Below are positions 6,371 to 48,634 of a stretch of DNA of 64,000 nucleotides, one piece after another. The stretch is from a virus: the IMG/VR virus record IMGVR_UViG_3300037317_000025, positions 1 to 64,000 of that record. One strand, given 5' to 3'. How positions within the stretch are numbered: position 1 is the first letter of the stretch; each line of letters starts with the position of its first letter. The position numbers were made by a program, and so were the translations under genes. The notes under the pieces are model-generated. The model did no database searches and was not told where the DNA came from. It worked only from the letters and a program-made list of their open reading frames with translations.

Positions 6371-7177
6371 TTACATACTCGCTTTTTCTTCCAGATACCG
6401 ATCCACGCTCGCCGCCGCATACCAGCCACGCCGGGACGGGTGGCGCTCGATCTTACCACGCTTCGCCAGACTGCCCACGAACTGGCGGCTCACGCCCAGG
6501 CGCTCCTGTGCCTCGTCCGTGGGGATGTACCCGGCCTCGCACAGCGCTGCCTGCTCGCGCTCCTGGCTGGCCTTCCAGGCGGCATGCTGCCGGGCTGCGA
6601 TGTCCTCCCGGTTGGCCGCGTAGTACGCACGGTCGTGCTCGCGCTTACCTTCCAGGTGGCACGCCTTGCATTCGGGTACGCGCTTCGTTCCGCCTGCGTA
6701 GCGATCTGCCCTGACGGTGTAATAGTCGTGCTCTGGCTTCGCCTGTCCGCACTTCGAGCAGACATACCAGAACTCGCCGCCCTCCGGCTCCGGGCCGTCC
6801 GGGTGCTGGCGCAGGTCGTGAACGTCCACAATTTCGCTCGCATCGACGACGGTGCGCCCGTCGCTGTCCAGTCGCGCCACGCGAACCGTGTTGCGCTCCT
6901 GGCGCATCCAGCCGAGCACCTGGACAGGAACCTGCTCCGCGTCCGTTGCTACCAGTGCCCGCTTGCCCGTCAACGCATCGACATCGACAGCAGACTGGCT
7001 GGTGTACCTGTCCACCGCCGCCGCGTCCACCGCCCACCGTTCATACGGCGCGCTGTCCATCGGCACCTTGCGGGCACGCAGTTCGCCGCGCCCGCACATG
7101 TCCCGAACCCGCTGCTCACTGTGTCCCAGGCGCTCGGCGGCCTGGGTGACGGTGAGTTCCTCGCGTGTGGTGGTCAT
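6371..7177 (-). CDS. excisionase-like HTH DNA-binding protein with central CxxC zinc ribbon
   Basis: LTVTQAAERLG..RVRDM..RGELRA; CSKC...CKAC; second HTH YIPTDEAQERLGVSRQ. Confidence 0.65.
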   Translation of the reverse strand: MTTTREELTVTQAAERLGHSEQRVRDMCGRGELRARKVPMDSAPYERWAVDAAAVDRYTSQSAVDVDALTGKRALVATDAEQVPVQVLGWMRQERNTVRVARLDSDGRTVVDASEIVDVHDLRQHPDGPEPEGGEFWYVCSKCGQAKPEHDYYTVRADRYAGGTKRVPECKACHLEGKREHDRAYYAANREDIAARQHAAWKASQEREQAALCEAGYIPTDEAQERLGVSRQFVGSLAKRGKIERHPSRRGWYAAASVDRYLEEKASM

Positions 7178-16641: not shown

Positions 16642-17505
16642 CTACATCGCTGCGTAATTCGCCTTGACCAGTTCGTCTAGTAAGGTGCTGACTGCGAGTG
16701 CCTCATCGCCAAGACCAGCGTCCTCTAACTGCTGCATATAGGCCAGCAATACCTTTGCAGTGCCGCCCTGCTTCACTTCCATGCTGGGCATTTTGCCGTT
16801 GCGGCGCAACCCGGTTGCGCGCTGCGTGCGCTTGCCCTTGCTCTCCAGTTCCGCCACTTTCTCGCGGCTATAGGCTTCCAGGTCAAACATTGCGGGCTGA
16901 TCCTGGATAGCCTGCAATTCGCCGACCATCGCCCGAAACTTGCGCAGCGGCGGCATTCCGGCGGTATCGTTCAAAATCTTCACCGCCTGAGTCTGATAGT
17001 ATTCCGACAGCCCGGTCATTGCTTCCGCGTGGCCGATAGGCAGCGCGCCGCTCGTAACCATCTTGCGCACGTCGTCAACCAGCGCCAGCAGGCCGACACG
17101 CTTCTGGACATACTCTTTACTCTTGCCCGTCGCTTCTGCAATCTCTGCCGCGCTCATGCCGAAGCGCTCAATACGCTCCTGGTACGCTGCCGCCTCTGCC
17201 ATCGGGTCAAGGTCAACCCGGTTCACGTTCTCAACCAGCATAATGGTGCTGGCCGCTTTGTCGTCCAGTTCCCGCACGATGGCCGGTATCTCTGTCCATC
17301 CGAGCACGTCCCGGCAGGCGCGGGTGCGGCGTTCGCCAGCGACAATCTCCAGACGACCGTCGGGCAGCGGACGGTACGTGGGCGGCTGTGCAAGGCCGTC
17401 GCGCTGAATGCTTGCGGCTAGTTCCTCAAGTTCCTGCTGATCGAATGCCCGACGGTCGTTGTTGCCTGCGATGACCTGTGAGAGTTTGACGTTCGTGATT
17501 TCCAT
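16642..17505 (-). CDS. ParB/Spo0J-like protein
   Basis: LEELAASI..DGLAQP, EIVAGERRTRA, LVENVNRVDLDPMAEA, followed by an HTH. Confidence 0.85.
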   Translation of the reverse strand: MEITNVKLSQVIAGNNDRRAFDQQELEELAASIQRDGLAQPPTYRPLPDGRLEIVAGERRTRACRDVLGWTEIPAIVRELDDKAASTIMLVENVNRVDLDPMAEAAAYQERIERFGMSAAEIAEATGKSKEYVQKRVGLLALVDDVRKMVTSGALPIGHAEAMTGLSEYYQTQAVKILNDTAGMPPLRKFRAMVGELQAIQDQPAMFDLEAYSREKVAELESKGKRTQRATGLRRNGKMPSMEVKQGGTAKVLLAYMQQLEDAGLGDEALAVSTLLDELVKANYAAM

Positions 17506-17625: not shown

Positions 17626-18405
17626 TCAGGTGTCGCTCGTATGTTCTTTACCCGAATCGGCGCAATCGTTCAGGTACGCCAGCGCCAGCCGTGCCATCTG
17701 CGCAACAGCGGTGGCCGGGGCGACAATCTCGCAATCCTTACGCACCCGCGCCAGGGCTTCCCGGAACAGGTCAAAATCTTGCCGATGCGCGACATACACG
17801 GTGTCTGCCTCTGCGTCGGGCAATGCCGCCAGCGCGTCGTCAACGGTCTGGGCTTGTGTTTCCAGGAACACGAACAGCAGCGCCCGTGTCTGGAATTCGA
17901 CATCGGGCGGCTTCACGCTGACAGGCTTGAGCTTCTGGTCAAGTTCGCGGGGATCAATGAACGACTCGAAGCGTGCCGAGATGTCGTCAATCTCTTGCCA
18001 GATGCGCTTGACCAGTGCCGGGTCGCTCTGGCCGACAATGCTGTTATGTGCCAGTTGCTTGGACTTTACCCGCGCTCGTGGCAGGCCGTGATAACAGAGA
18101 CACAGGATCGCCTGCATACCCGCAGCGCGAGCGGCGCGGACGCGGTGGTGGCCGCTGATGATCTCGTAGCGCTCATCGTTCCCCCGCGCAACCAGTGGTA
18201 CGCTCTCTGGCGCGCCCGCCTCTTTGATGTTGTCTGCCAACTGGTCAAACATCTTTTGCGGCATGCTTTGCGCGTTCACGTCCTGCTCGCGCAGCAGGTC
18301 GAGCGACACCCAGGCCAGCGACAGGCTCTCCGGCAGGATGTCCCGACTGATCGCCGCCAGTCGCTCGTTTATGCCCTGGTCTGCGGTGCCCATTTCTTGA
18401 GCCAT
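17626..18405 (-). CDS. ParB/sulfiredoxin N-terminal-domain protein
   Basis: NAQSM..FDQLADNI, YEIISGHHRVRAA, QLAHNSIVG. Confidence 0.7.
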   Translation of the reverse strand: MAQEMGTADQGINERLAAISRDILPESLSLAWVSLDLLREQDVNAQSMPQKMFDQLADNIKEAGAPESVPLVARGNDERYEIISGHHRVRAARAAGMQAILCLCYHGLPRARVKSKQLAHNSIVGQSDPALVKRIWQEIDDISARFESFIDPRELDQKLKPVSVKPPDVEFQTRALLFVFLETQAQTVDDALAALPDAEADTVYVAHRQDFDLFREALARVRKDCEIVAPATAVAQMARLALAYLNDCADSGKEHTSDT

Positions 18406-19796
18406 ATGCCGATTGTCTCCTCTCGTGTACGGGCGACAATTGCCGCGCTATACGATAACTTGTAGCCACCTGTCTTCTGCGGTTCACGTCGGTCTAGCTT
18501 CAGAATGCCGCGTGCGGTCTTGTTCTCCGGGTGCTCAGTGAGCATCGTGGTTTGCACGTTTTCGGGCGCACCGCAGGCGACATACCACTGCTCATGGCCG
18601 AATGCATCCTGCCAGAACCAGGCCGATACCACCGATAGCAGGGTCAACTTGTGCAGGCGGGCATAGGCTGGGTGCGGCACGCTGAAGGCAAAGGTCATAT
18701 TCGCAGCATCCTTGTTGGCATGCTGGTGTGTTCCGCCGCCAGTTATCAAAGTTTTCAGATGGGTGCCGACAATCGCCAGCAGCGCGCCGTCCAGGAACAG
18801 CCCGACATAGCGCTCGGTGCCGCTACTGTCGATTTTGTGAATGAACAGATCGCGGTAATAGTCGCCGGTTTCCTTCTTGATCTGCTGCGCAACCAGCAGG
18901 CTGTCCGGCTGCACGGTGCCGTCAAACAGCGGGTACACGCCTTTCCCGGACACCATCCGGGCGCGGTTAATCGTGGCGGGCAACGGGGCGCGATTGGCGA
19001 TAATCCAGTTGACCGCAGCCCGACGCAGGCTGCCGGGGCGATCTGCGAACACAGCCCGCCACGGGTCGCCCCAGAGCGGCGTGGGGTCTTCGCCGGGGGT
19101 GGCATAGTACATCAGCGTGTGCGCGGGGCTCCTGCCGAGCAGTTCCATCAGGCGTTCGTAGTCCGACTCGTCAAACTGCGCCGCGTCCGGTTCGTCCCAG
19201 GTGAATATCTGGTCAATGCCTTTGAACATGCGCTGATAACCCTTGCTGTAGCGCGGCGGGTTTGCCAGGATCAGCGTGTCCGGATCGTGGCGGTGGGTTT
19301 CGAGGGTGTCCCACATATCGCGGGGGTGGTAGGTAAGACCGCCGAGGGTCTGGGCAACCGCCTGCACGCGCTCGTGCAGTTGGTTCAGATAGCGATCGGC
19401 GTTGCAGAGCAGTTCGGTGCGATGATCGGCTTTGTGCTGCTTGTCGCCGTCGTACTGACACACGCGGATCGCATACAACACGGCAACCGCTTTGCGCATG
19501 GGGGTGTCAAGCCAGGCCGCGACCGCGTGGCCGATGTCGCCCGCGTGCTCGGTCAGGGCAAGCCGCCAGTCGGTGCCCTGGATCGCGTTGCCGAGGGCAG
19601 TGCTGTAGATTGAGATGTCGCCGCAGACAATGGCCGAGGGCGGGATGCCCGCCTGCACGGCAACGTGTGCCAGGGAAAAGCTGCCCGTGCAAGGGATGAC
19701 CACCAGGCGCGGCGCGGTGGCCTGGATAACGTCTGCGGTGTAGGCGCGAGTCGGGCCGCGTGGGATGCCTTTGAATAAAATATCGGGTGCCGCCAT
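18369..19796 (-). CDS. putative DNA adenine methyltransferase-like modification protein
   Basis: IPCTGSF (motif I-like), CGDIS and ILANPPRY (motif IV-like); coupled to the ParB-N gene. Confidence 0.5.
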   Translation of the reverse strand: MAAPDILFKGIPRGPTRAYTADVIQATAPRLVVIPCTGSFSLAHVAVQAGIPPSAIVCGDISIYSTALGNAIQGTDWRLALTEHAGDIGHAVAAWLDTPMRKAVAVLYAIRVCQYDGDKQHKADHRTELLCNADRYLNQLHERVQAVAQTLGGLTYHPRDMWDTLETHRHDPDTLILANPPRYSKGYQRMFKGIDQIFTWDEPDAAQFDESDYERLMELLGRSPAHTLMYYATPGEDPTPLWGDPWRAVFADRPGSLRRAAVNWIIANRAPLPATINRARMVSGKGVYPLFDGTVQPDSLLVAQQIKKETGDYYRDLFIHKIDSSGTERYVGLFLDGALLAIVGTHLKTLITGGGTHQHANKDAANMTFAFSVPHPAYARLHKLTLLSVVSAWFWQDAFGHEQWYVACGAPENVQTTMLTEHPENKTARGILKLDRREPQKTGGYKLSYSAAIVARTREETIGIWLKKWAPQTRA

Positions 19797-19841
19797 AAGG
19801 TTGTGTGGACCAGCCCGCCGGAGTTGCACCGGCTCTCTCAA

Positions 19842-20510: not shown

Positions 20511-20535
20511 GCCAATATCTACGGGTATTATAGCA
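20511..20535 (-). promoter_or_regulatory. putative late promoter motif, copy 3
   Basis: TGCTATAATACCCGTAGATATTGGC. Confidence 0.65.
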
Positions 20536-20540
20536 TAATG

Positions 20541-20566
20541 AAAAAAAAGACTGCCCGAAAGCAGCC
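20541..20566 (-). terminator. intrinsic terminator ending the CRISPR transcript
   Basis: GGCTGC-TTTCGG-GCAGTC-TTTTTTTT on the minus strand, right after the truncated trailer repeat. Confidence 0.75.
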
Positions 20567-20591
20567 ATTTGTCCTCAACTCAACTCACCTT

Positions 20592-21125
20592 ACCGCGCAT
20601 TGACCATTGCAACGCCAGTGCAGCCCAGGACATCGGCGCTCATCATCCTCTTGCACCCTGCTCAACCGCGCGTTGACCATTGCAACTTAGTCCTGGCGGC
20701 GGGTGGTACAGTTGTACCATTGCCCTTGCACCCTGCTCAACCGCGCATTGACCATTGCAACGTCGGGCTGTGACCTCATAGCGTTGCGTGTACTTGTTCT
20801 TGCACCCTGCTCAACCGCGCATTGACCATTGCAACAACAATGAAGGCGCTGCTGCAGGAGCACGACGAGCTTGCACCCTGCTCAACCGCGCATTGACCGT
20901 TGCAACGTGATGAGTTCCAGTCCTGGCTGATCCTCATTATACTTGCACCCTGCTCAACCGCGCATTGACCATTGCAACTGCTGCTGCTGATATACACAGG
21001 CTTGCCCAGGAAGCTCTTGCACCCTACTCAACCGCGTGTTGACCATTGCAACATATGTTTGACGATTGCAACGATGCTCACAACTCTCCTTGCACCCTGC
21101 TCAACCGCGCATTGACCATTGCAAC
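20592..21125 (-). CRISPR. CRISPR array: 7 full 37-bp repeats + 1 truncated trailer repeat, 7 spacers (34-38 bp)
   Basis: Repeat GTTGCAATGGTCAATGCGCGGTTGAGCAGGGTGCAAG (minus strand) at 21089-21125, 21016-21052, 20942-20978, 20870-20906, 20799-20835, 20725-20761, 20650-20686; 22-bp remnant at 20592-20613; spacers are unique. Confidence 0.97.
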
Positions 21126-22591
21126 TCGTCAAACATATGTAGTTGATACAGAGTCGAGTGTTCAGATGTGTTCTGCACATCAGTCGGGGATGGCACCCCG
21201 CGCTCACTCGTTGAGGCGTGCGCCTCTTCGCAGTTCACAGGCGTACTAGCAGACCGTTCCGCCTCCCTGCGCACGTCACTTGGGGCATTGCCCCGCGCAA
21301 CCTGCCCGTTGCACACGGGTGTCTCTGGATAGTGTTTCGCGTTCGCTCGGTTGCCAATATTCCGAGCGGCGTTGATGTCTCTATCGTGTTCAGTTCCGCA
21401 CTCACCGCACTTCCAGGCGCGGGTGCGAAGCTCAATCTTGCGCGGCGATTTCACCCCGCAGGCGCTACAGGCTTGCGTGGTGTTGGCTGCGTCCACTTCG
21501 TAGTATGCGCGACCTGCCGCTTCGGCCTTCTCTTTGATCTTCTGGCGCAACTTGCCAGGGGCGGCGCTTTGCATCGACTTGTTGAGCGAGCGCTTCAGCT
21601 TGCGCCCCCGGTGCTTGTAGCGCTTGCCATTCTTGCGCTTGGCTTTGGTCATGTGCGCAAAGTTGATGTCCTCGACGCCAATGGTGTCAGCCGTGTCCAC
21701 AATGCGCTTTGCAATGTAGTGCTGCTGGTGATCGCGCTTGCGCGTGGTCTTCTGATGGAGCTTTGCAATACGCGCCCGCCGCCGCTTCGTGCGGTTGCTG
21801 TTCGGATCGGCCTTCTTGCCCGCGCCCCTGGTTTTGCGCTTCGGTGCGACCAGGCGCTCCAGGACACGCTTGCGTTTCTCTAGCTTACGGATGCTATCAT
21901 CCTGGCTATAGGTGCGCCCATCCGACAGCGCGGCGACATCCTGCGTGTCGCCACGGTGCTTGCAGTTCAGGTCAACGCCTACCGTCTTGCCTGTCTCTGG
22001 CAACGGTTCCGGCTCTGGCACCTCGCAGCTAAACGAGATATACCAGTCGTTTTTCACGCGAGTGATATGCACCTGCTTGATAACCGCGTCGTCTGGTATG
22101 GCACGGTGCATGCGCACGCGCAAGTGTCCAAGTTTGCCCGCGCCCGCCAGTTGCCAGTAGGCATAGCGGCGGCTCTCTCCGACAATTCGCGTCCCTCGCT
22201 CGGAGCCGCGAAACGCCAGACCCAAATCAGCAGGCCGCTCCGCCCAGCGCGGATTGCCTGCCGGAAACCGCTTCGCCTTGATGTTGCGAAACATATTTTT
22301 ATAGGCAGTATCAACGCGCCCACTGATGCCAAAGTTGCCGCCCATCGTGTCAGCAGGCACATCGCGCCAGTGGACTATGGTTGCCCGCATGCGCGTGATG
22401 AACTTCCCCTGCGTGCCAGATGTGACCGTCGGCACATACCGCGCCTGCTGTTGCTTCAGCCGGTACGCATCGCGACGCTGCTGGATAAGCACGCGCTGCA
22501 CTTCCCAACACGCCTGCTGCCACGCCTCAAGCGTGCGCTGCTGGTCTGCGTTCGGATAGAGCCGGTATTTGTATGAGCGTGCTATAGTCAT
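21101..22591 (-). CDS. tnpB: CRISPR-associated TnpB-like/compact type V (Cas12-like) RNA-guided nuclease, ~496 aa
   Basis: RSYKYRLYPNADQ N-terminus; RuvC-I VGVDLN, RuvC-II IGVEDIN, Zn ribbon CSAC...CGEC, RuvC-III HDRDINAARNI; stop codon lies inside CRISPR repeat 1. Confidence 0.88.
   Translation of the reverse strand: MTIARSYKYRLYPNADQQRTLEAWQQACWEVQRVLIQQRRDAYRLKQQQARYVPTVTSGTQGKFITRMRATIVHWRDVPADTMGGNFGISGRVDTAYKNMFRNIKAKRFPAGNPRWAERPADLGLAFRGSERGTRIVGESRRYAYWQLAGAGKLGHLRVRMHRAIPDDAVIKQVHITRVKNDWYISFSCEVPEPEPLPETGKTVGVDLNCKHRGDTQDVAALSDGRTYSQDDSIRKLEKRKRVLERLVAPKRKTRGAGKKADPNSNRTKRRRARIAKLHQKTTRKRDHQQHYIAKRIVDTADTIGVEDINFAHMTKAKRKNGKRYKHRGRKLKRSLNKSMQSAAPGKLRQKIKEKAEAAGRAYYEVDAANTTQACSACGVKSPRKIELRTRAWKCGECGTEHDRDINAARNIGNRANAKHYPETPVCNGQVARGNAPSDVRREAERSASTPVNCEEAHASTSERGVPSPTDVQNTSEHSTLYQLHMFDELQWSMRG
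21126..21340 (-). ncRNA. putative omega/tracr-like scaffold RNA overlapping the effector's 3' coding tail
   Basis: Several hairpins; partial anti-repeat GCACGCCTCAAC (21221-21210); repeat-3'-like TGAGCGCGGGGTGCCA (21206-21191); boundaries uncertain. Confidence 0.5.
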
Positions 22592-22597
22592 ATAATG

Positions 22598-22636
22598 ATT
22601 ATAGCACATTGCACACATAGTTGCAAGTGCTATAAT
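22598..22636. promoter_or_regulatory. overlapping divergent sigma70 promoters forming an imperfect palindrome
   Basis: Minus: TTGCAA-17-TATAAT, 6 nt before ATG 22591; plus: TTGCAC-16-TATAAT; ATTATAGCAC...GTGCTATAAT inverted arms. Confidence 0.75.
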
Positions 22637-22672
22637 AGGGATAGCACAAACAAGATACAAGGTGAGGTTGAC

Positions 22673-22900
22673 ATGGTAAGATGGGCACTCAAGGAGATCG
22701 CAGAGCCGGAGCGCTGGTCGGCGCGGCGGTTGGCAAAAGAGTCGGGGTTGTCGTATAGTGCAGTGTATTACATCTGGGCGAATAAAACGCGCCGGGTGGA
22801 TTTCGATACGCTTGAGAAGCTCTGCCGAATACTCAAGGTCGGGCCGGGTGATTTGATTGTCTGCGACGAACCACAAAACACCACAACTCCGCATCCCTAG
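22673..22900 (+). CDS. Cro/C1-type HTH transcriptional regulator
   Basis: SARRLAKESGLSYSAVYYIWANKTRRVDFDTLEKLCRIL..GDLI; GAGGT RBS. Confidence 0.85.
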   Translation: MVRWALKEIAEPERWSARRLAKESGLSYSAVYYIWANKTRRVDFDTLEKLCRILKVGPGDLIVCDEPQNTTTPHP

Positions 22901-24113
22901 ACTGCGCCCGGATCAATCGGCCATCGCCCGCCACCCGGCGAAGCGACAAATCGTGGCGATGGGGCGGCGCTGGGGCAAGACCGTGCTGGGCGGGGCGCTG
23001 GCGCTGGCGTGCGCGGCGAACGGCGCAAAGGTTGCATGGGTTGCGCCGACCTACAAGAACAGCAGGCCGTTGTGGCGATATTGCGAACAATCAGTCGCCC
23101 ACCTGAAACGCACACCCTATGTCGAGGTCAACAAGTCCGAGCGAACCGTCACCTTCCCGCAGACCAATGGCAGCATCGCTATCTACAGTGCAGACAATGC
23201 CGATTCGGCTCGCGGCGAGTCGTTCGATCTGGTCGTCATCGACGAAGCCAGCAGGATTAGCGAGGATGCCTACCAGGCCGTCTTTGAGCCAACCGTGGCC
23301 GACCGCGACGGGATAATCCTGCTCATCAGCACACCGCTTGGCCGCAATTATTTTTGGAAACTCTGGCAACAAGGCCAACTCGCGGAGAACCACCACCGTA
23401 TCAAATCCTGGCAGGCTCCGAGCAACGCTAACCCGATGCCAGGTATTCAGCGGGCATTCCATCTGGCGAAGGAACACACGCCGGAACGCACGTTCTTGCA
23501 GGAATGGATGGCGCAATTTCTGGACGAGGCCGGGGTGTTTCGCTTTGTCTACGACCGCGCCATCGCCGCGCCGCTTGCCCAGGGCGAGGAGGGGCGCACG
23601 TATGTCTACGGCTGCGACTGGGCGGGCAACAGCGGACAGGGCGACTTCACCGCCTTTGCCGTGATGGACGCGGAACGCAAGACACTGGTGCATCTCGACA
23701 GGTTCCACGGCACGAGCTACGAACAGCAGATGAACCGCCTGCTGGGGCTGGCGCAGCGCTTCCCGCCGACGGCGATTGTGGCCGAGGTGAACTCGATGGG
23801 CGGGCCGGTGTTCGAGCAACTGGTCAACGCAGAACTGCCGATGGTGCCGTGGGTCGCCAGCAACGCCACCAAGAAGGTCGGTGTTGAGGCGCTGCAACTG
23901 GCACTGGAGCAGGGCACGATCACGCTGCTGAATGAGCCGACGCTTGTCCACGAGATGACCGCGTATGAAGCCAGCAGCACGGCGAGCGGACTGGTGCGCT
24001 ATTCTGCGCCGGAGGGCGATCACGATGACTGCGTGATGGCGGTGATGATGGCGTGGCTGGGCTGCCTGAACAGTGGGCCGATGCTGCTGAGTGAGGGCGC
24101 GGGGCGGTATTAG
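22857..24113 (+). CDS. terL: terminase large subunit
   Basis: Walker A GRRWGKT, Walker B LVVIDEA, ISTP, nuclease YGCDW...GDHDDCVMA; TTG start uncertain. Confidence 0.9.
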   Translation: MSATNHKTPQLRIPRLRPDQSAIARHPAKRQIVAMGRRWGKTVLGGALALACAANGAKVAWVAPTYKNSRPLWRYCEQSVAHLKRTPYVEVNKSERTVTFPQTNGSIAIYSADNADSARGESFDLVVIDEASRISEDAYQAVFEPTVADRDGIILLISTPLGRNYFWKLWQQGQLAENHHRIKSWQAPSNANPMPGIQRAFHLAKEHTPERTFLQEWMAQFLDEAGVFRFVYDRAIAAPLAQGEEGRTYVYGCDWAGNSGQGDFTAFAVMDAERKTLVHLDRFHGTSYEQQMNRLLGLAQRFPPTAIVAEVNSMGGPVFEQLVNAELPMVPWVASNATKKVGVEALQLALEQGTITLLNEPTLVHEMTAYEASSTASGLVRYSAPEGDHDDCVMAVMMAWLGCLNSGPMLLSEGAGRY

Positions 24114-34593: not shown

Positions 34594-35007
34594 ATGCAGA
34601 CAACCGATGAACTGATGGCCGACGCGCTGGCTCAGTTGCAAGAGCACACCGGCACGCTCACGCAGGCCCAGGCAGCGCTTGAGCGGCGGGTGGCTGGACA
34701 CGAGCGGCGGCTGGCGGCGCTGGAGCAGGTGCTCGCCTCGCTGCGGGCGCGGGTGGCCGAACTGGAATCGCGGACGGGCTGGATCGCCTGCACTGAACGG
34801 ATGCCGCCTGCGGGCGAGCGGGTGCTGGTGTGGGACTGGGTGGCGCGGGATGCGTGGCTGGGTTGGGTCGCTGATGGTGGCTGGTTGGTGATAGGGGATA
34901 GCGACGACGGACGGCCTATGGACGGCGATTCGTTTGTGTCGCACTGGATGCCGCTGCCGGGGGAGCCGCAAGCAGGAGTCGAGGATGCAGCGAACACTGC
35001 GCAGTAA
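34594..35007 (+). CDS. DUF551-like protein
   Basis: WIACTERMP...VSHWMPLPGEP. Confidence 0.7.
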   Translation: MQTTDELMADALAQLQEHTGTLTQAQAALERRVAGHERRLAALEQVLASLRARVAELESRTGWIACTERMPPAGERVLVWDWVARDAWLGWVADGGWLVIGDSDDGRPMDGDSFVSHWMPLPGEPQAGVEDAANTAQ

Positions 35008-37132
35008 GCGATTGCGGGCGGTGCTCTGGTATGCCGCCGATGGGAAATGCCAGGTATGCGGGTGTGACCTGGGTGATGATTGGCACGCGGATCATATCGT
35101 GCCGTGGTCGGTATCAAAACGAACGAATGTCCACGAGATGCAGGCGCTCTGCCGCTCGTGCAATTTGAAGAAGGGAAAAAACATGCAATGTTCAATGGTT
35201 GACGTGATTGACTTGTCGGAGGCAAGGCCGGGGCAGCGAGAGGCGTTTAGCGTGTTGTGCGAGCGTGTGCGGCAGGGCGAAGCAACTACTGCTATTGTGT
35301 TGCCCACTCGATATGGTAAAAGTGATGTGATGCGCCTCGCGTCAATCCAGTTGCTATCAGAGGGAATCATCAGTAAGGCATTCATCCTCTCGCCACAAGA
35401 GACATTGCGCAAACAGGTAGTGACCAGGAGAAAGATCGATGAAATGAATCGCCGCTATAAAGTGATGTTCAAGCCGGGAATGCGAACACTCGCAACCTGG
35501 CCTGGCGACAAAAGCCTCCACAGGAAAATAACCCCCAATGATGAATCTATTGTCTCGACCACTATTCAACTTATGAATTCCTGGAGAGATGCGCAGCAGG
35601 GTATTGTTGACTACTTTGAGAGCCTGAAGAATAGAACGGGCAAGAATGCACTGGTGTGCATTGATGAGGCACACACCGTATCGTCTGGCAATGAATGGGG
35701 CAAGACAATCGCAGTCATCAAGGATTATGTGCATGTCGCCCTCTTTACGGCCACCCCTGTGCGTGAAACGGGTACACTCTATGGGTTTCGCTACGAGACC
35801 GCCAAAGAAGAGGAGATTACTCAGTGTGTAACCCGCCCCGGAAAAACAGAAGACACTGTTATCGTTGACCTGTATTCTGGCACCCGATCAGAAATACGCC
35901 TCATTCCAGACCACGAAACCACGTTCGCTGATGCATGGGCGGAAACCCCTTCCCCGCTTTGCGAGGTGTCGAGATTGCCAGTAGATGTAGACATGGAAAA
36001 GATAGAGGCTGCTAATGTGGAATCTGGAGTTAAGTTGTCTGAGCTTTCAGAGACAGAAGCACGCCGAGTCTTGCGAGTGACTAGCCGTGACACGATGGTT
36101 ATTCACGAGGTGTGCCGCCAGATGATCGCCGCATTGCAATTGTTCCGTCAGCGTGATGAGCGGTGTGCGGCCATGGTCTTTTGTGGGAACGACACAGGGG
36201 ACGACGATAGCCAGACAAATGAGCACGCAAAGCGTATCCAGAAGGTTATCGCTGCAATGGATTCGTCATTGAACGTCTTGATTGCAACCTCGAAATCCGG
36301 CAGCGATAACCTGGATGATTTTGCGAACGAAGAAAAGAATAAGGGCGATGTGATTATCGTCAAGCAGATGGGTGGTGCTGGCCTTGATGTGGGTCGCGTG
36401 AAGGTTGTTGCCGACCTGTCTTCTGTTCGTACCTATGGCGCATGTATCCAGCGATGGCTACGGGGAGCAACTATCTTTTCTCCTATCCGGCATATGGTAC
36501 TGGTCACACTTGATGACATCCTCTCTCGCGCCAATTTTGAAAAGGTCGTTGGTGATGTAGGAGGGCAAACGGTTACGAGTTTGCAGGAGCTTTTGAGCAG
36601 CTATGAGAAGGAGCGGGTAGGGAGCGAGAAACCCACCTATGTGCCGATAAGTGCCAGGCATAGCGACTTTGAGGACAATGCACGAAATCAGACCGAAGCA
36701 AGCCGGCTGGATTCTGTGCAAGCGTTGTGTAAGGTGTTCGCTCCGCACGAGACGCGCTCTTATAGTCAGATTTCAAACCTGATGGATAGTCTTGGCATGC
36801 AGATCGTGGTCAAGGAGCCGCTCGCCGGTGCTCATCAGAATACCGATGAGACGGTGCGGCAATACCAGGAGAGTATCATCAATATTCTCGATGGGATTAA
36901 ACCGAGCTTGCAACGCGAGGTCATCACGAATCCCCACAAGTTCCCAGATGTTGATGCTGGTACAGTGACTAGCCGCCTCTATGTTTATGTGTTCAGGATG
37001 GCAGGCATTACCGGCAAGGCATCGGTGCGCAAGGTTGAGAATATTGAAGACTTGCGCCGCCTGAAGCGGGCCGCGTTGATGGTGGAGCAAGATCATCGCA
37101 AGGGAGAGGTGACAGCATGCACGGTTTTGTAG
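34985..37132 (+). CDS. HNH endonuclease fused to an SF2 (DEAH-like) helicase
   Basis: CQVC..HADHIVPW..N..QALCRSCN; then LPTRYGKS, IDEAH, TATP, QRWLRG. Confidence 0.75.
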   Translation: MQRTLRSKRLRAVLWYAADGKCQVCGCDLGDDWHADHIVPWSVSKRTNVHEMQALCRSCNLKKGKNMQCSMVDVIDLSEARPGQREAFSVLCERVRQGEATTAIVLPTRYGKSDVMRLASIQLLSEGIISKAFILSPQETLRKQVVTRRKIDEMNRRYKVMFKPGMRTLATWPGDKSLHRKITPNDESIVSTTIQLMNSWRDAQQGIVDYFESLKNRTGKNALVCIDEAHTVSSGNEWGKTIAVIKDYVHVALFTATPVRETGTLYGFRYETAKEEEITQCVTRPGKTEDTVIVDLYSGTRSEIRLIPDHETTFADAWAETPSPLCEVSRLPVDVDMEKIEAANVESGVKLSELSETEARRVLRVTSRDTMVIHEVCRQMIAALQLFRQRDERCAAMVFCGNDTGDDDSQTNEHAKRIQKVIAAMDSSLNVLIATSKSGSDNLDDFANEEKNKGDVIIVKQMGGAGLDVGRVKVVADLSSVRTYGACIQRWLRGATIFSPIRHMVLVTLDDILSRANFEKVVGDVGGQTVTSLQELLSSYEKERVGSEKPTYVPISARHSDFEDNARNQTEASRLDSVQALCKVFAPHETRSYSQISNLMDSLGMQIVVKEPLAGAHQNTDETVRQYQESIINILDGIKPSLQREVITNPHKFPDVDAGTVTSRLYVYVFRMAGITGKASVRKVENIEDLRRLKRAALMVEQDHRKGEVTACTVL

Positions 37133-47402: not shown

Positions 47403-47620
47403 GGAGCCGCCGTGTCTCACCTTGTTACCAGCAACGAATCACAGGCGATCAACGAAATCATCACCGTGTTAGCCGAAGCGCTCATTGCGCGCCGTGAACA
47501 GCGCAACCGCACGGCGACCTTGCTGGCCGAACTCGCCAGTCAACAGGACGCGACGGGGTGGCACGCCTGCCGTTCTGGATTGCGCGACGAGATCAGAGAA
47601 TTACTAGAGGAGGTTATATC

Positions 47621-48634
47621 ATGAGTAGTTTGCAGGTTTCTGTTGCCCTGATAGACCAGGTATTACCACACCCGAACGCGGACAGGCTGGAGATTGCCCA
47701 TGTCCTGGGCTGGCAGTGTGTGGTGCCAAAGGGCAAACACAAGGAAGGCGAGAAAGTCGTCTACTTCCCGCCTGACACCGTGCTACCGGAAGACGTATCG
47801 GACAGGTTCGGTGTGACGAAGTATCTGAGCAAGGGGCGCATCCGCTGCGCGAAACTCCGGGGCGAACCATCCTTCGGCCTGGTCGTTGAGCCTGATGCTG
47901 ATTGGCAGGTGGGCGCGAACGTAGCAGACGCCTATGGTGCTACGAAGTACGAGCCGCCCGTCCAGGTCACTGCCGGGGATGCGGCTCCCGATCACCCTCT
48001 CTTTGTGAGGTACACCGACATTGAGAACATGCGCAACTTTCCCGACATACTCGTTCCTGGTGAGCCCGTGGTCGTAACCGAGAAGATTCACGGCACGCAA
48101 TGCCGGGTCGGGATGATCGAGGGTGTAAAAATGGCAGGCAGCAAGGGACTGCGCCGGAAAGAGCCAGAGAGTTACGTCAGCAGCACCTACTGGTATCCCT
48201 GGACGCTGTCAGGGGTGCAAGGGATGTTGGCATGGTTGAACAGCCAGCATCGGCAGGTCATCCTGTTTGGGGAGGTGTTTGGCAAGAAGATGCAGAGCCT
48301 CGCCTACGGGCAGCAGGGGCTTGCGTTCCGTGCCTTCGATCTGCTGGCCAATGGGCAGTACATGGACTATCTGGACTTTCGCACGCTCTGCGAGGAGTAT
48401 GGGGTGCCAATGGTGCCGGTGTTACACGAAGGCAGTTTCTCGCTCCAGTCTGTTCGCCACGCCAGTGGCGGCAAGACGACGCTGATGGACGATAACGCAC
48501 ATATCCGTGAGGGCGTGGTGGTGAAGCCATTCAAAGAGCGCACCCACCCCGCTATCGGGCGCGTTATTTTGAAATATGTGAGCGACGAGTACCTGTTTGG
48601 TGCTGTTGCCGATGATGAGGTAAATGAACTATGA
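47621..48634 (+). CDS. RNA ligase (DRB0094/Rnl2-like)
   Basis: PHPNADRLE..V.GWQCVV, VTEKIHG (motif I), FGEVFG, FDL, REGVVVKP. Confidence 0.85.
   Translation: MSSLQVSVALIDQVLPHPNADRLEIAHVLGWQCVVPKGKHKEGEKVVYFPPDTVLPEDVSDRFGVTKYLSKGRIRCAKLRGEPSFGLVVEPDADWQVGANVADAYGATKYEPPVQVTAGDAAPDHPLFVRYTDIENMRNFPDILVPGEPVVVTEKIHGTQCRVGMIEGVKMAGSKGLRRKEPESYVSSTYWYPWTLSGVQGMLAWLNSQHRQVILFGEVFGKKMQSLAYGQQGLAFRAFDLLANGQYMDYLDFRTLCEEYGVPMVPVLHEGSFSLQSVRHASGGKTTLMDDNAHIREGVVVKPFKERTHPAIGRVILKYVSDEYLFGAVADDEVNEL

Follow-up and report, generated by a model that had tools for sequence, protein, structure and literature searches.

We describe a locus in a window of viral DNA (the whole stretch analysed, 64,000 nucleotides (nt), being the first 64 kb of the linear, 75,346-base IMG/VR virus record IMGVR_UViG_3300037317_000025, which is about 71% complete) in which a gene for a TnpB-like nuclease runs directly into a CRISPR array. 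The phage originates from tidal-flat sediment, and contigs from four tidal-flat metagenome runs (X1, X2, X3 and X6) were placed on the locus. We consider it probable (about 0.7) that the phage carries here a miniature CRISPR system, type V-like and self-contained, of a TranC/Cas12n-like kind, that acts against competing phages. The features on which this reading draws are listed here.

21101-22591, minus strand: effector gene for a TnpB-fold protein of 496 amino acids (aa) whose RuvC and zinc finger are intact
20577-21125, minus strand: CRISPR array, in which 7 spacers alternate with seven full 37-nt repeats and a degenerate one at the distal end
20762-20798, minus strand: spacer 5, matching the sister-allele effector gene of sibling phages
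22598-22626, minus strand: effector-array promoter (TTGCAA, 17 nt, TG, TATAAT), its end 6 nt upstream of the ATG
20549-20566, minus strand: intrinsic terminator of the effector-array unit, a 7-bp stem and then T8 on the minus strand
21104-21331, minus strand: region coding for the disordered tail (residues 421-496) and presumed tracr/omega-like scaffold, ending with the motif QLHMFD
21229-21249, minus strand: best anti-repeat candidate in the window, not statistically supported; when the tail is folded together with repeat 1, the minimum-free-energy structure pairs it with positions 17-34 of the repeat
22673-22900, plus strand: divergent Cro/C1-type helix-turn-helix (HTH) gene (Pfam HTH_26, E 4.7e-14; PHROG transcriptional repressors/regulators)

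The link between nuclease and array is not a matter of chance, because a 43%-identical relative of the effector occurs in a second phage with the matching gene-array layout plus an anti-repeat. This relative (locus L164) resides in a distant 83-kb virus of 49% GC. Its array, which begins 17 nt past the stop codon on the same strand, has 37-nt repeats with two spacers and then decaying repeats. The repeat has a different sequence, with the start GTTGC.A in common, and ends ATTGAAAG, compared with GGTGCAAG in the window. At ~6445-6489, in the L164 tail-coding region, lies a nearly full-length anti-repeat with a duplex energy of -31.9 kcal/mol (-20.9 +/- 2.5 for shuffled repeats), and a second one occupies 6535-6566, in the stretch that separates the stop codon from the array, with a helix score of 33 (20.9 +/- 3.2 for shuffled sequence). 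The association of gene and array in both the window and L164, with differing repeats (n = 2 loci), thus argues against a chance insertion beside an orphan array, an origin that the initial annotation of the window, made from the letters alone, had allowed for. That annotation had also noticed the lack of cas1, cas2 and tnpA. For the 75,346-base record this was borne out, as Cas1, Cas2 and Y1 TnpA were not found (Cas4 was not searched); in the L164 phage record Cas1 and TnpA were likewise not found, Cas2 having been searched in the window's record only.

A repeat search of the window returned one family of eight copies, with a spacing of 71-75 nt. The seven full repeats, at 20650-21125, begin GTTGCAAT and finish GGGTGCAAG in the minus-strand sense, and the distal eighth, at 20577-20613, retains just the first 22 nt in that sense. 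The seven spacers are 34-38 nt long. These results agree with the earlier description of a seven-spacer, 37-bp-repeat array directly at a TnpB-type open reading frame of ~496 aa, as does the position of the effector stop codon (21101-21103), which indeed falls within repeat 1 (21089-21125), so that the last seven codons of the gene (LQWSMRG) come from the repeat. Variation among the repeats is found at positions 8, 15 and 16 and as C27U, the sole variant in an otherwise invariant 3' half, a change that the predicted fold of the repeat would accommodate by wobble pairing.

The array is oriented on the minus strand. This follows from the gene-distal position of the degenerate repeat, the minus-strand terminator at 20566-20549 and the single strong minus-strand promoter at 22626-22598, and because the relative in L164 carries its array on the strand of its gene. 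The truncated trailer repeat and the terminator had already been put forward as evidence for this orientation and both hold; a third argument, from pairing in the repeat hairpin, is weak, as the hairpin is no better than that of shuffled sequence (z -1.5), one of the three variant repeats disrupts a pair and the L164 repeat is unstructured.

The first spacer has an unusual relation to the sequence beside it:

21053-21088, minus strand: spacer 1, in which the last 20 nt at the 3' end repeat the leader/repeat-1 junction (21119-21140) in inverted form

The inverted repeat formed by the 3' part of spacer 1 (21053-21071) and the leader gives a 15-bp plus 6-bp stem (~21 bp) around repeat 1 and the effector stop codon (fold z -2.7). 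A processing site, an attenuator or aberrant acquisition are possible explanations. One X2 contig omits exactly the repeat 1-spacer 1 unit (21051->21126). The sole Rfam match, to miR-190, is a chance match produced by this same inverted repeat and was rejected. Parts of the array had low or zero contig cover (X2, X3 and X6), and joints within the array had short sides; because repeats break assemblies, we did not use these as evidence of spacer turnover.

A single promoter lies ahead of the effector gene and a single terminator behind the array; gene and array therefore look like one transcription unit. Because the promoter stops six bases short of the ATG, the effector mRNA is probably leaderless, and the L164 promoter is also positioned for a leaderless start. 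The gene call of P0012, a member of the effector clade described below, reads through the same promoter and -10 box, starting MCAMCYNYYM. The divergent HTH gene has a mirror promoter that overlaps the effector promoter, as read by eye. Both promoters share one imperfect palindrome at 22598-22636 (ATTATAGCAC ... GTGCTATAAT), and given this overlap, binding of RNA polymerase to the two should be mutually exclusive. The HTH protein is probably the regulator of both. A similar extended -10 box is present upstream of the terS-like gene, at 20527-20540.

The effector open reading frame starts MTIARSYKYRLYP. All three TnpB/Cas12f modules of Pfam were detected in the protein, and the NCBIfam model guided_TnpB matched end to end with 205 bits (cut-off 100). 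Scores against IS200_TnpB (141.5 bits, cut-off 425) and IS607_TnpB (79.4 bits, cut-off 350) were far lower than their cut-offs, as were those against the c2c8 and Cas12f2 NCBIfam models. In the clade alignment, the catalytic residues D207, E307 and D405 and the zinc-finger cysteines C375, C378, C395 and C398 are invariant or nearly so. The TnpB architecture read initially from the letters is upheld by this conservation and by the guided_TnpB score. An AlphaFold model made with 28 relatives had a mean pLDDT of 81.6, with residues 1-420 confident and residues 428-496 disordered (pLDDT <50). The best Foldseek match was ISDra2 TnpB (8h1j), with a template modelling (TM) score of 0.82 on the target, followed by ISFba1 TnpB, Cas12f and LaTranC. 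Structure prediction, one of the checks that had been suggested for the locus, therefore yielded a TnpB core like that of ISDra2 with a disordered tail. The insertions reported relative to typical TnpB are present but small; compared with ISDra2-type TnpB they amount to ~6 aa after RuvC-I, ~5 aa, and ~16 Lys/Arg-rich aa after RuvC-II, with low pLDDT. A profile of the clade gave 119 bits against RdCas12n (9j09) over the full length and 114 bits against ISDra2 TnpB, and the clade is therefore about equally distant from the two. The intact catalytic residues support the prediction that the effector is a CRISPR-associated, TnpB-like, RNA-guided RuvC nuclease.

The effector belongs to a small, sharply separated lineage. 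A word-indexed search found 27 relatives with 37-53% identity, after which the score falls from 236 to 135 bits; an exhaustive search of 1.84 billion representatives returned about 13 clusters (50% identity) at 277-696 bits, followed by a gap to 236. In a quick maximum-likelihood tree (IQ-TREE), 32 clade members stand behind a long branch with 100% support in the Shimodaira-Hasegawa-like approximate likelihood ratio test (SH-aLRT), apart from the nearest ordinary TnpBs. The suggested phylogeny, in this quick form, sets the protein apart from ordinary TnpBs. The window protein and the L164 protein (P0125) fall on separate sub-branches of the clade, and the association of gene and array is therefore probably old within it. 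No clade member was found in 169 Chloroflexia or 401 sampled Chloroflexota genomes (~10 candidates scored per genome); the only hint of a host is one clade member annotated from a metagenome-assembled genome of Herpetosiphonaceae. With the clade alignment, P0012 and a clade-specific sub-alignment as queries, further clade loci were sought in IMG/VR and in collections of metagenomes and genomes, and only L164 or ordinary TnpBs were returned.

We presume that the tail-coding region doubles as a tracr/omega-like scaffold. In the GC-rich DNA of the window, the best anti-repeat candidate had a local helix score of 26, no better than that of shuffled sequence (23.4 +/- 3.3). Two indirect points are consistent with a CRISPR RNA (crRNA) that depends on a trans-activating crRNA (tracrRNA): repeat variants lie nearly all in the 5' half, and the distal degenerate repeat is without the 3' half. 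A short hairpin in the tail region is kept between the window and L164 via compensatory changes, a weak indication given the two sequences compared.

At the protein level, the clade members with a full tail end Q-[LMI]-x-[LMF]-[FLW]-D, for example QLSLFD, QLELFE, QLSLDL and QMSFFD, with QLHMFD in the window. The motif occurs in about 15 clade members, compared with 0/93 and 1/136 outgroup TnpBs. The bacterial sliding-clamp-binding motif is QL[SD]LF, typically at a disordered C-terminus, and the clade motif resembles it. Conservation of the tail peptide could instead reflect constraint on the RNA in a stretch with two coding roles. The carriers of the motif and the hypothetical partner are as follows.

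21104-21150, minus strand: tail motif in the window; other carriers are P0002, P0009, P0012, P0013, P0015-P0018, P0022, P0023, P0123, P0125 and P0126
48631-49752, plus strand: phage DnaN sliding clamp, hypothetical docking partner of the effector tail motif, with all three DNA_pol3_beta domains

The L164 phage also has a full three-domain DnaN (L260:763-1854, minus strand), 41% identical to that of the window. A complex prediction with effector tail residues 440-496 and the phage DnaN scored 0.03, which neither supports nor opposes binding. Should the resemblance of the tail motif to a clamp-binding one prove real, an RNA-guided nuclease would be tied to the replisome. Before the window's clamp gene lies an RNA ligase gene (47558-48634).

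A target was identified for spacer 5. The translation of this spacer in the crRNA sense, NKYTQRYEVTAR, is identical at 12 of 12 residues to P0015 and P0023 and at 11 of 12 to P0012 and P0018; the four proteins form a well-supported sister sub-clade in the tree. Extra depth and loose ends on both sides of the spacer were seen in all four runs (4/4), and the matching contigs continue into non-repeat sequence. On translation, the sequences beside the protospacer give PSQDQYGLYP and NEAWRAVPA, which P0015 also has. The protospacer thus occurs in the same metagenomes as the cassette that carries the spacer. It is located in a REC insertion that is missing from the window's own gene, and the phage therefore does not target itself. 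The 5' flank, ...TATCCT, is not A-rich, although a single flank is weak evidence (n=1). The 3' flank, GTTGCA, equals the first six bases of the repeat, such that the match extends 6 nt into the repeat; this identity may be a coincidence, with odds of about 1 in 4,000, or may hint at how spacers are captured without Cas1-Cas2.

On the evidence of the contigs, the sister allele occupies the same locus in sibling phages. Contigs of this allele have the window's promoter and first 33 codons and then continue with WCIKQRRWAE, as in P0012 and P0015; the basis for a shared locus is a loose end at 22493, a depth peak at 22491-22607 and a joint 20798->22494. Across the four runs, the first ~100 nt of the effector gene are five- to ten-fold deeper than the remainder, and a third context, at a loose end at 22581, reads MTSI..ARSYKY upstream. 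This excess depth and the third context suggest that several alleles or loci in the community share the 5' segment of the effector gene.

Other spacer searches were negative. Matching the whole array to GenBank phages gave chance-level matches only, and an exact-match search of IMG/VR with spacers 4 and 5 found nothing. Among 257 fetched loci and the phage's own 75 kb, no spacer matched apart from a partial self-match of spacer 1. The initial proposal had been that the system is used against competing elements or the host. The first part is supported, for at least one spacer, by the match of spacer 5 to the sister allele of sibling phages; a host target was not found in these searches.

The gene and its array also come and go as a unit, whose limits are given with the adjoining phage gene:

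20536-22879, minus strand: accessory cassette of 2.34 kb, made up of the effector and array, the terminator, the divergent promoters and the larger part of the HTH gene
22857-24113: large terminase (TerL), the phage gene beside the cassette

Good but not airtight evidence indicates that some sibling phages are without the whole cassette, because contig joints connect the terS-like side straight to 22880 (20535->22880 in X6, with 22 intervening letters, and 20477->22880 in X1) and TerL regains a complete N-terminus, MRTTIPQLRIPRLRPDQ, across the X6 junction. Both joints have short sides, of 28-40 nt. The borders enclose the HTH gene and the array as well, unlike those of an IS200/IS605 element with tnpB alone.

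In the system that we propose, one leaderless transcript from the promoter at 22626-22598 would encode the TnpB-sized RuvC nuclease and would run on through the tail-coding region, as the scaffold, and then the seven-spacer array, ending at the terminator (20566-20549). Carrying scaffold RNA and repeat-spacer units, this nuclease would then cut DNA that matches the spacers. The targets would be competing phages, spacer 5 being directed to the diverged sister allele at the same locus in siblings. The divergent HTH protein would regulate the overlapping promoters, and new spacers might be supplied by host adaptation proteins or by another route. RNA loading, cleavage, the protospacer-adjacent motif (PAM), regulation and biological role are what we infer here.

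Several observations weigh against this proposal. The linkage of gene and array was read at the DNA level in just two clade loci, and a target was found for 1 of the 7 spacers in the collections searched. The evidence for the protospacer comes from contig assemblies and from loose ends of 30 letters in the four runs, which probably belong to one sampling campaign. No anti-repeat exceeded shuffled controls on either cassette strand of the window. In addition, host type I/III arrays have Cas6-type handles, to which the 3' ends of the repeats (GGTGCAAG in the window and ATTGAAAG in L164) are similar. Some phages are known to carry mini-arrays that draw on the Cas proteins of the host, and the locus could be such a type I/III-style array exploiting the host's proteins, with the neighbouring TnpB-like gene unrelated, domesticated or decaying. 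The 8-nt handle-like ends would suit this explanation, as would the lack of a significant anti-repeat in the window and of Cas1/Cas2 in its record. We nevertheless judge it improbable: L164 has the same adjacency, strand and spacing with a different repeat, plus a nearly full-length anti-repeat in the tail region; the gene and array have one promoter and terminator in common; and the catalytic residues are conserved across the clade. Furthermore, the 26-nt repeat core was present in none of 185,579 species-representative genomes (exact matching in viral collections was also negative). Even less credible is the chance insertion, beside an array, of a standard TnpB element of the IS200/IS605 or IS607 type together with its omega RNA. 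The protein does have a TnpB fold and a guided_TnpB score over the cut-off, but TnpA was found in neither phage record, the gene is single-copy and its IS200_TnpB score is 141 bits against a cut-off of 425; the cassette borders take in the HTH gene and array, and the clade is rare and not multi-copy.

A further explanation, which we regard as unlikely, is RNA-guided homing or allelic drive, in which the other allele is cut and then repaired by copying the cassette from a co-infecting genome, so that the cassette spreads among siblings. Spacer 5 does hit the rival allele at the same locus, between homologous flanks (the promoter, the first 33 codons, the terS-like gene and terL), and the cassette is present in some siblings and absent in others. 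Meers and colleagues reportedly found in 2023 that cutting of the empty site by TnpB promotes transposon retention, and homing would continue this ancestral job of cutting the other allele. However, no spacer matches the X6 empty-site junction, as compared by eye, targets were found for one spacer only, and plain exclusion accounts for the same data. In its fullest and quite speculative form, the locus would be an RNA-guided allelic-exclusion or homing cassette passing between siblings, with the array directed at the rival allele and the QLxLF-type tail tethering the nuclease to the phage or host clamp on replicating rival DNA.

Family searches of the phage genes around the locus identified an amidase, DnaB, DnaC-like proteins, methyltransferases and ParB-like proteins. 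The latter are two in number, at 16642-17505 and 17626-18405, both on the minus strand. At 18369-19841 (minus strand) lies a gene that joins a DAM-like methylase to a phage GNAT-like domain, and at 34934-37132 (plus strand) one that combines an HNH endonuclease with a helicase of the ResIII/SNF2 type. ARAGORN found no tRNA and no tmRNA in the window.

Comparison with known systems places the locus among transposon-to-CRISPR intermediates. The initial annotation had suggested such an intermediate between TnpB and Cas12, and the TnpB-sized core, the array linkage and the Cas12n-style tail fit that view; its further suggestion that the type of lineage might be undescribed does not stand, since TranC and Cas12n, including the phage TranC9, have already been published. 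We file the system as TranC/Cas12n-like, in that it would work like both, and not as a Cas12n. TranC are TnpB lineages in transition to Cas12 by splitting of the omega RNA (PMC13565253). Several TranC clades have been described, among them CauTranC9, of 414 aa, from Caudoviricetes, with a 38-bp repeat and phage-targeting spacers (bioRxiv 10.64898/2026.03.27.714800). The likeness to TranC lies in a TnpB-derived, TnpB-sized RuvC nuclease beside a short array with no adaptation genes. Compared by description with CauTranC9, the present system has a core of about 420 aa and a 37-bp repeat, and it too is set in a phage. LaTranC (PDB 9jfq), the sole TranC compared by sequence, is distant (single-sequence E 7e-10; profile 71 bits, in the C-terminal half only). 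The guide of TranC is split into tracrRNA and crRNA; here, a significant anti-repeat is found in L164 and none significant in the window. Moreover, the present clade has a Cas12n-like disordered tail, whereas an unstructured tail of this kind is found in none of the preprint's TranC subtypes (bioRxiv 10.64898/2026.03.27.714800).

Cas12n (type V-N, formerly V-U4; RdCas12n, PDB 9j09) is characterized by a disordered C-terminal tail, a tracrRNA that overlaps the open reading frame, REC and WED expansions and an A-rich PAM (PMC12216341). The present system shares the disordered tail and, in L164, an anti-repeat within the tail-coding region, and like Cas12n it has a monomer-sized TnpB-like nuclease early on the path from TnpB to Cas12 (PMC12216341). 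The clade is without the REC extension and WED expansion, and superposes best on ISDra2 TnpB; in a phmmer alignment, query residue 160 aligns with residue 235 of RdCas12n, which has ~75 extra N-terminal residues. This absence of the Cas12n expansions argues against a place inside Cas12n; that the protein might fall in a characterised Cas12 subtype was an outcome that the initial annotation had considered. The protospacer flank is TATCCT here (n=1, weak), compared with the AAN PAM of Cas12n, and the setting is a phage, compared with actinobacteria.

The effector resembles ISDra2-type TnpB of IS200/IS605 in its fold and size, in the order of its domains and in the catalytic residues, as well as in the overlap of a (here presumed) guide-RNA scaffold with the gene's 3' end. 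In contrast to that TnpB, no TnpA was found here and there are no recognisable insertion sequence ends (which are not searchable by homology), a multi-spacer array takes the place of a single flank-derived guide, and the gene belongs to a phage cassette that also has an HTH gene and is presumably regulated. Cas12j (CasPhi) and Cas12l (CasLambda) are also single effectors borne by phages; their arrays are short, an adaptation module is missing, and they presumably act against competing elements. However, they are 700-800 aa in size and use crRNA only, and they are remote structural matches (8dc2, TM 0.42; 7odf, E 3.7e-5).

New in the present system are the spacer directed at the sister-allele effector, the presence or absence of the cassette among siblings and the clade-wide tail motif. 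Each independent array-bearing TnpB lineage shows how type V systems arise from transposons, and the present clade would add a phage-borne combination of a TnpB-sized core with a Cas12n-style, scaffold-overlapping tail. The ~420-aa core, with its dispensable-looking tail, may be of practical interest as a compact genome editor. With a spacer against a rival allele and a cassette that comes and goes, phage-versus-phage CRISPR warfare or RNA-guided homing becomes testable on natural sequences.

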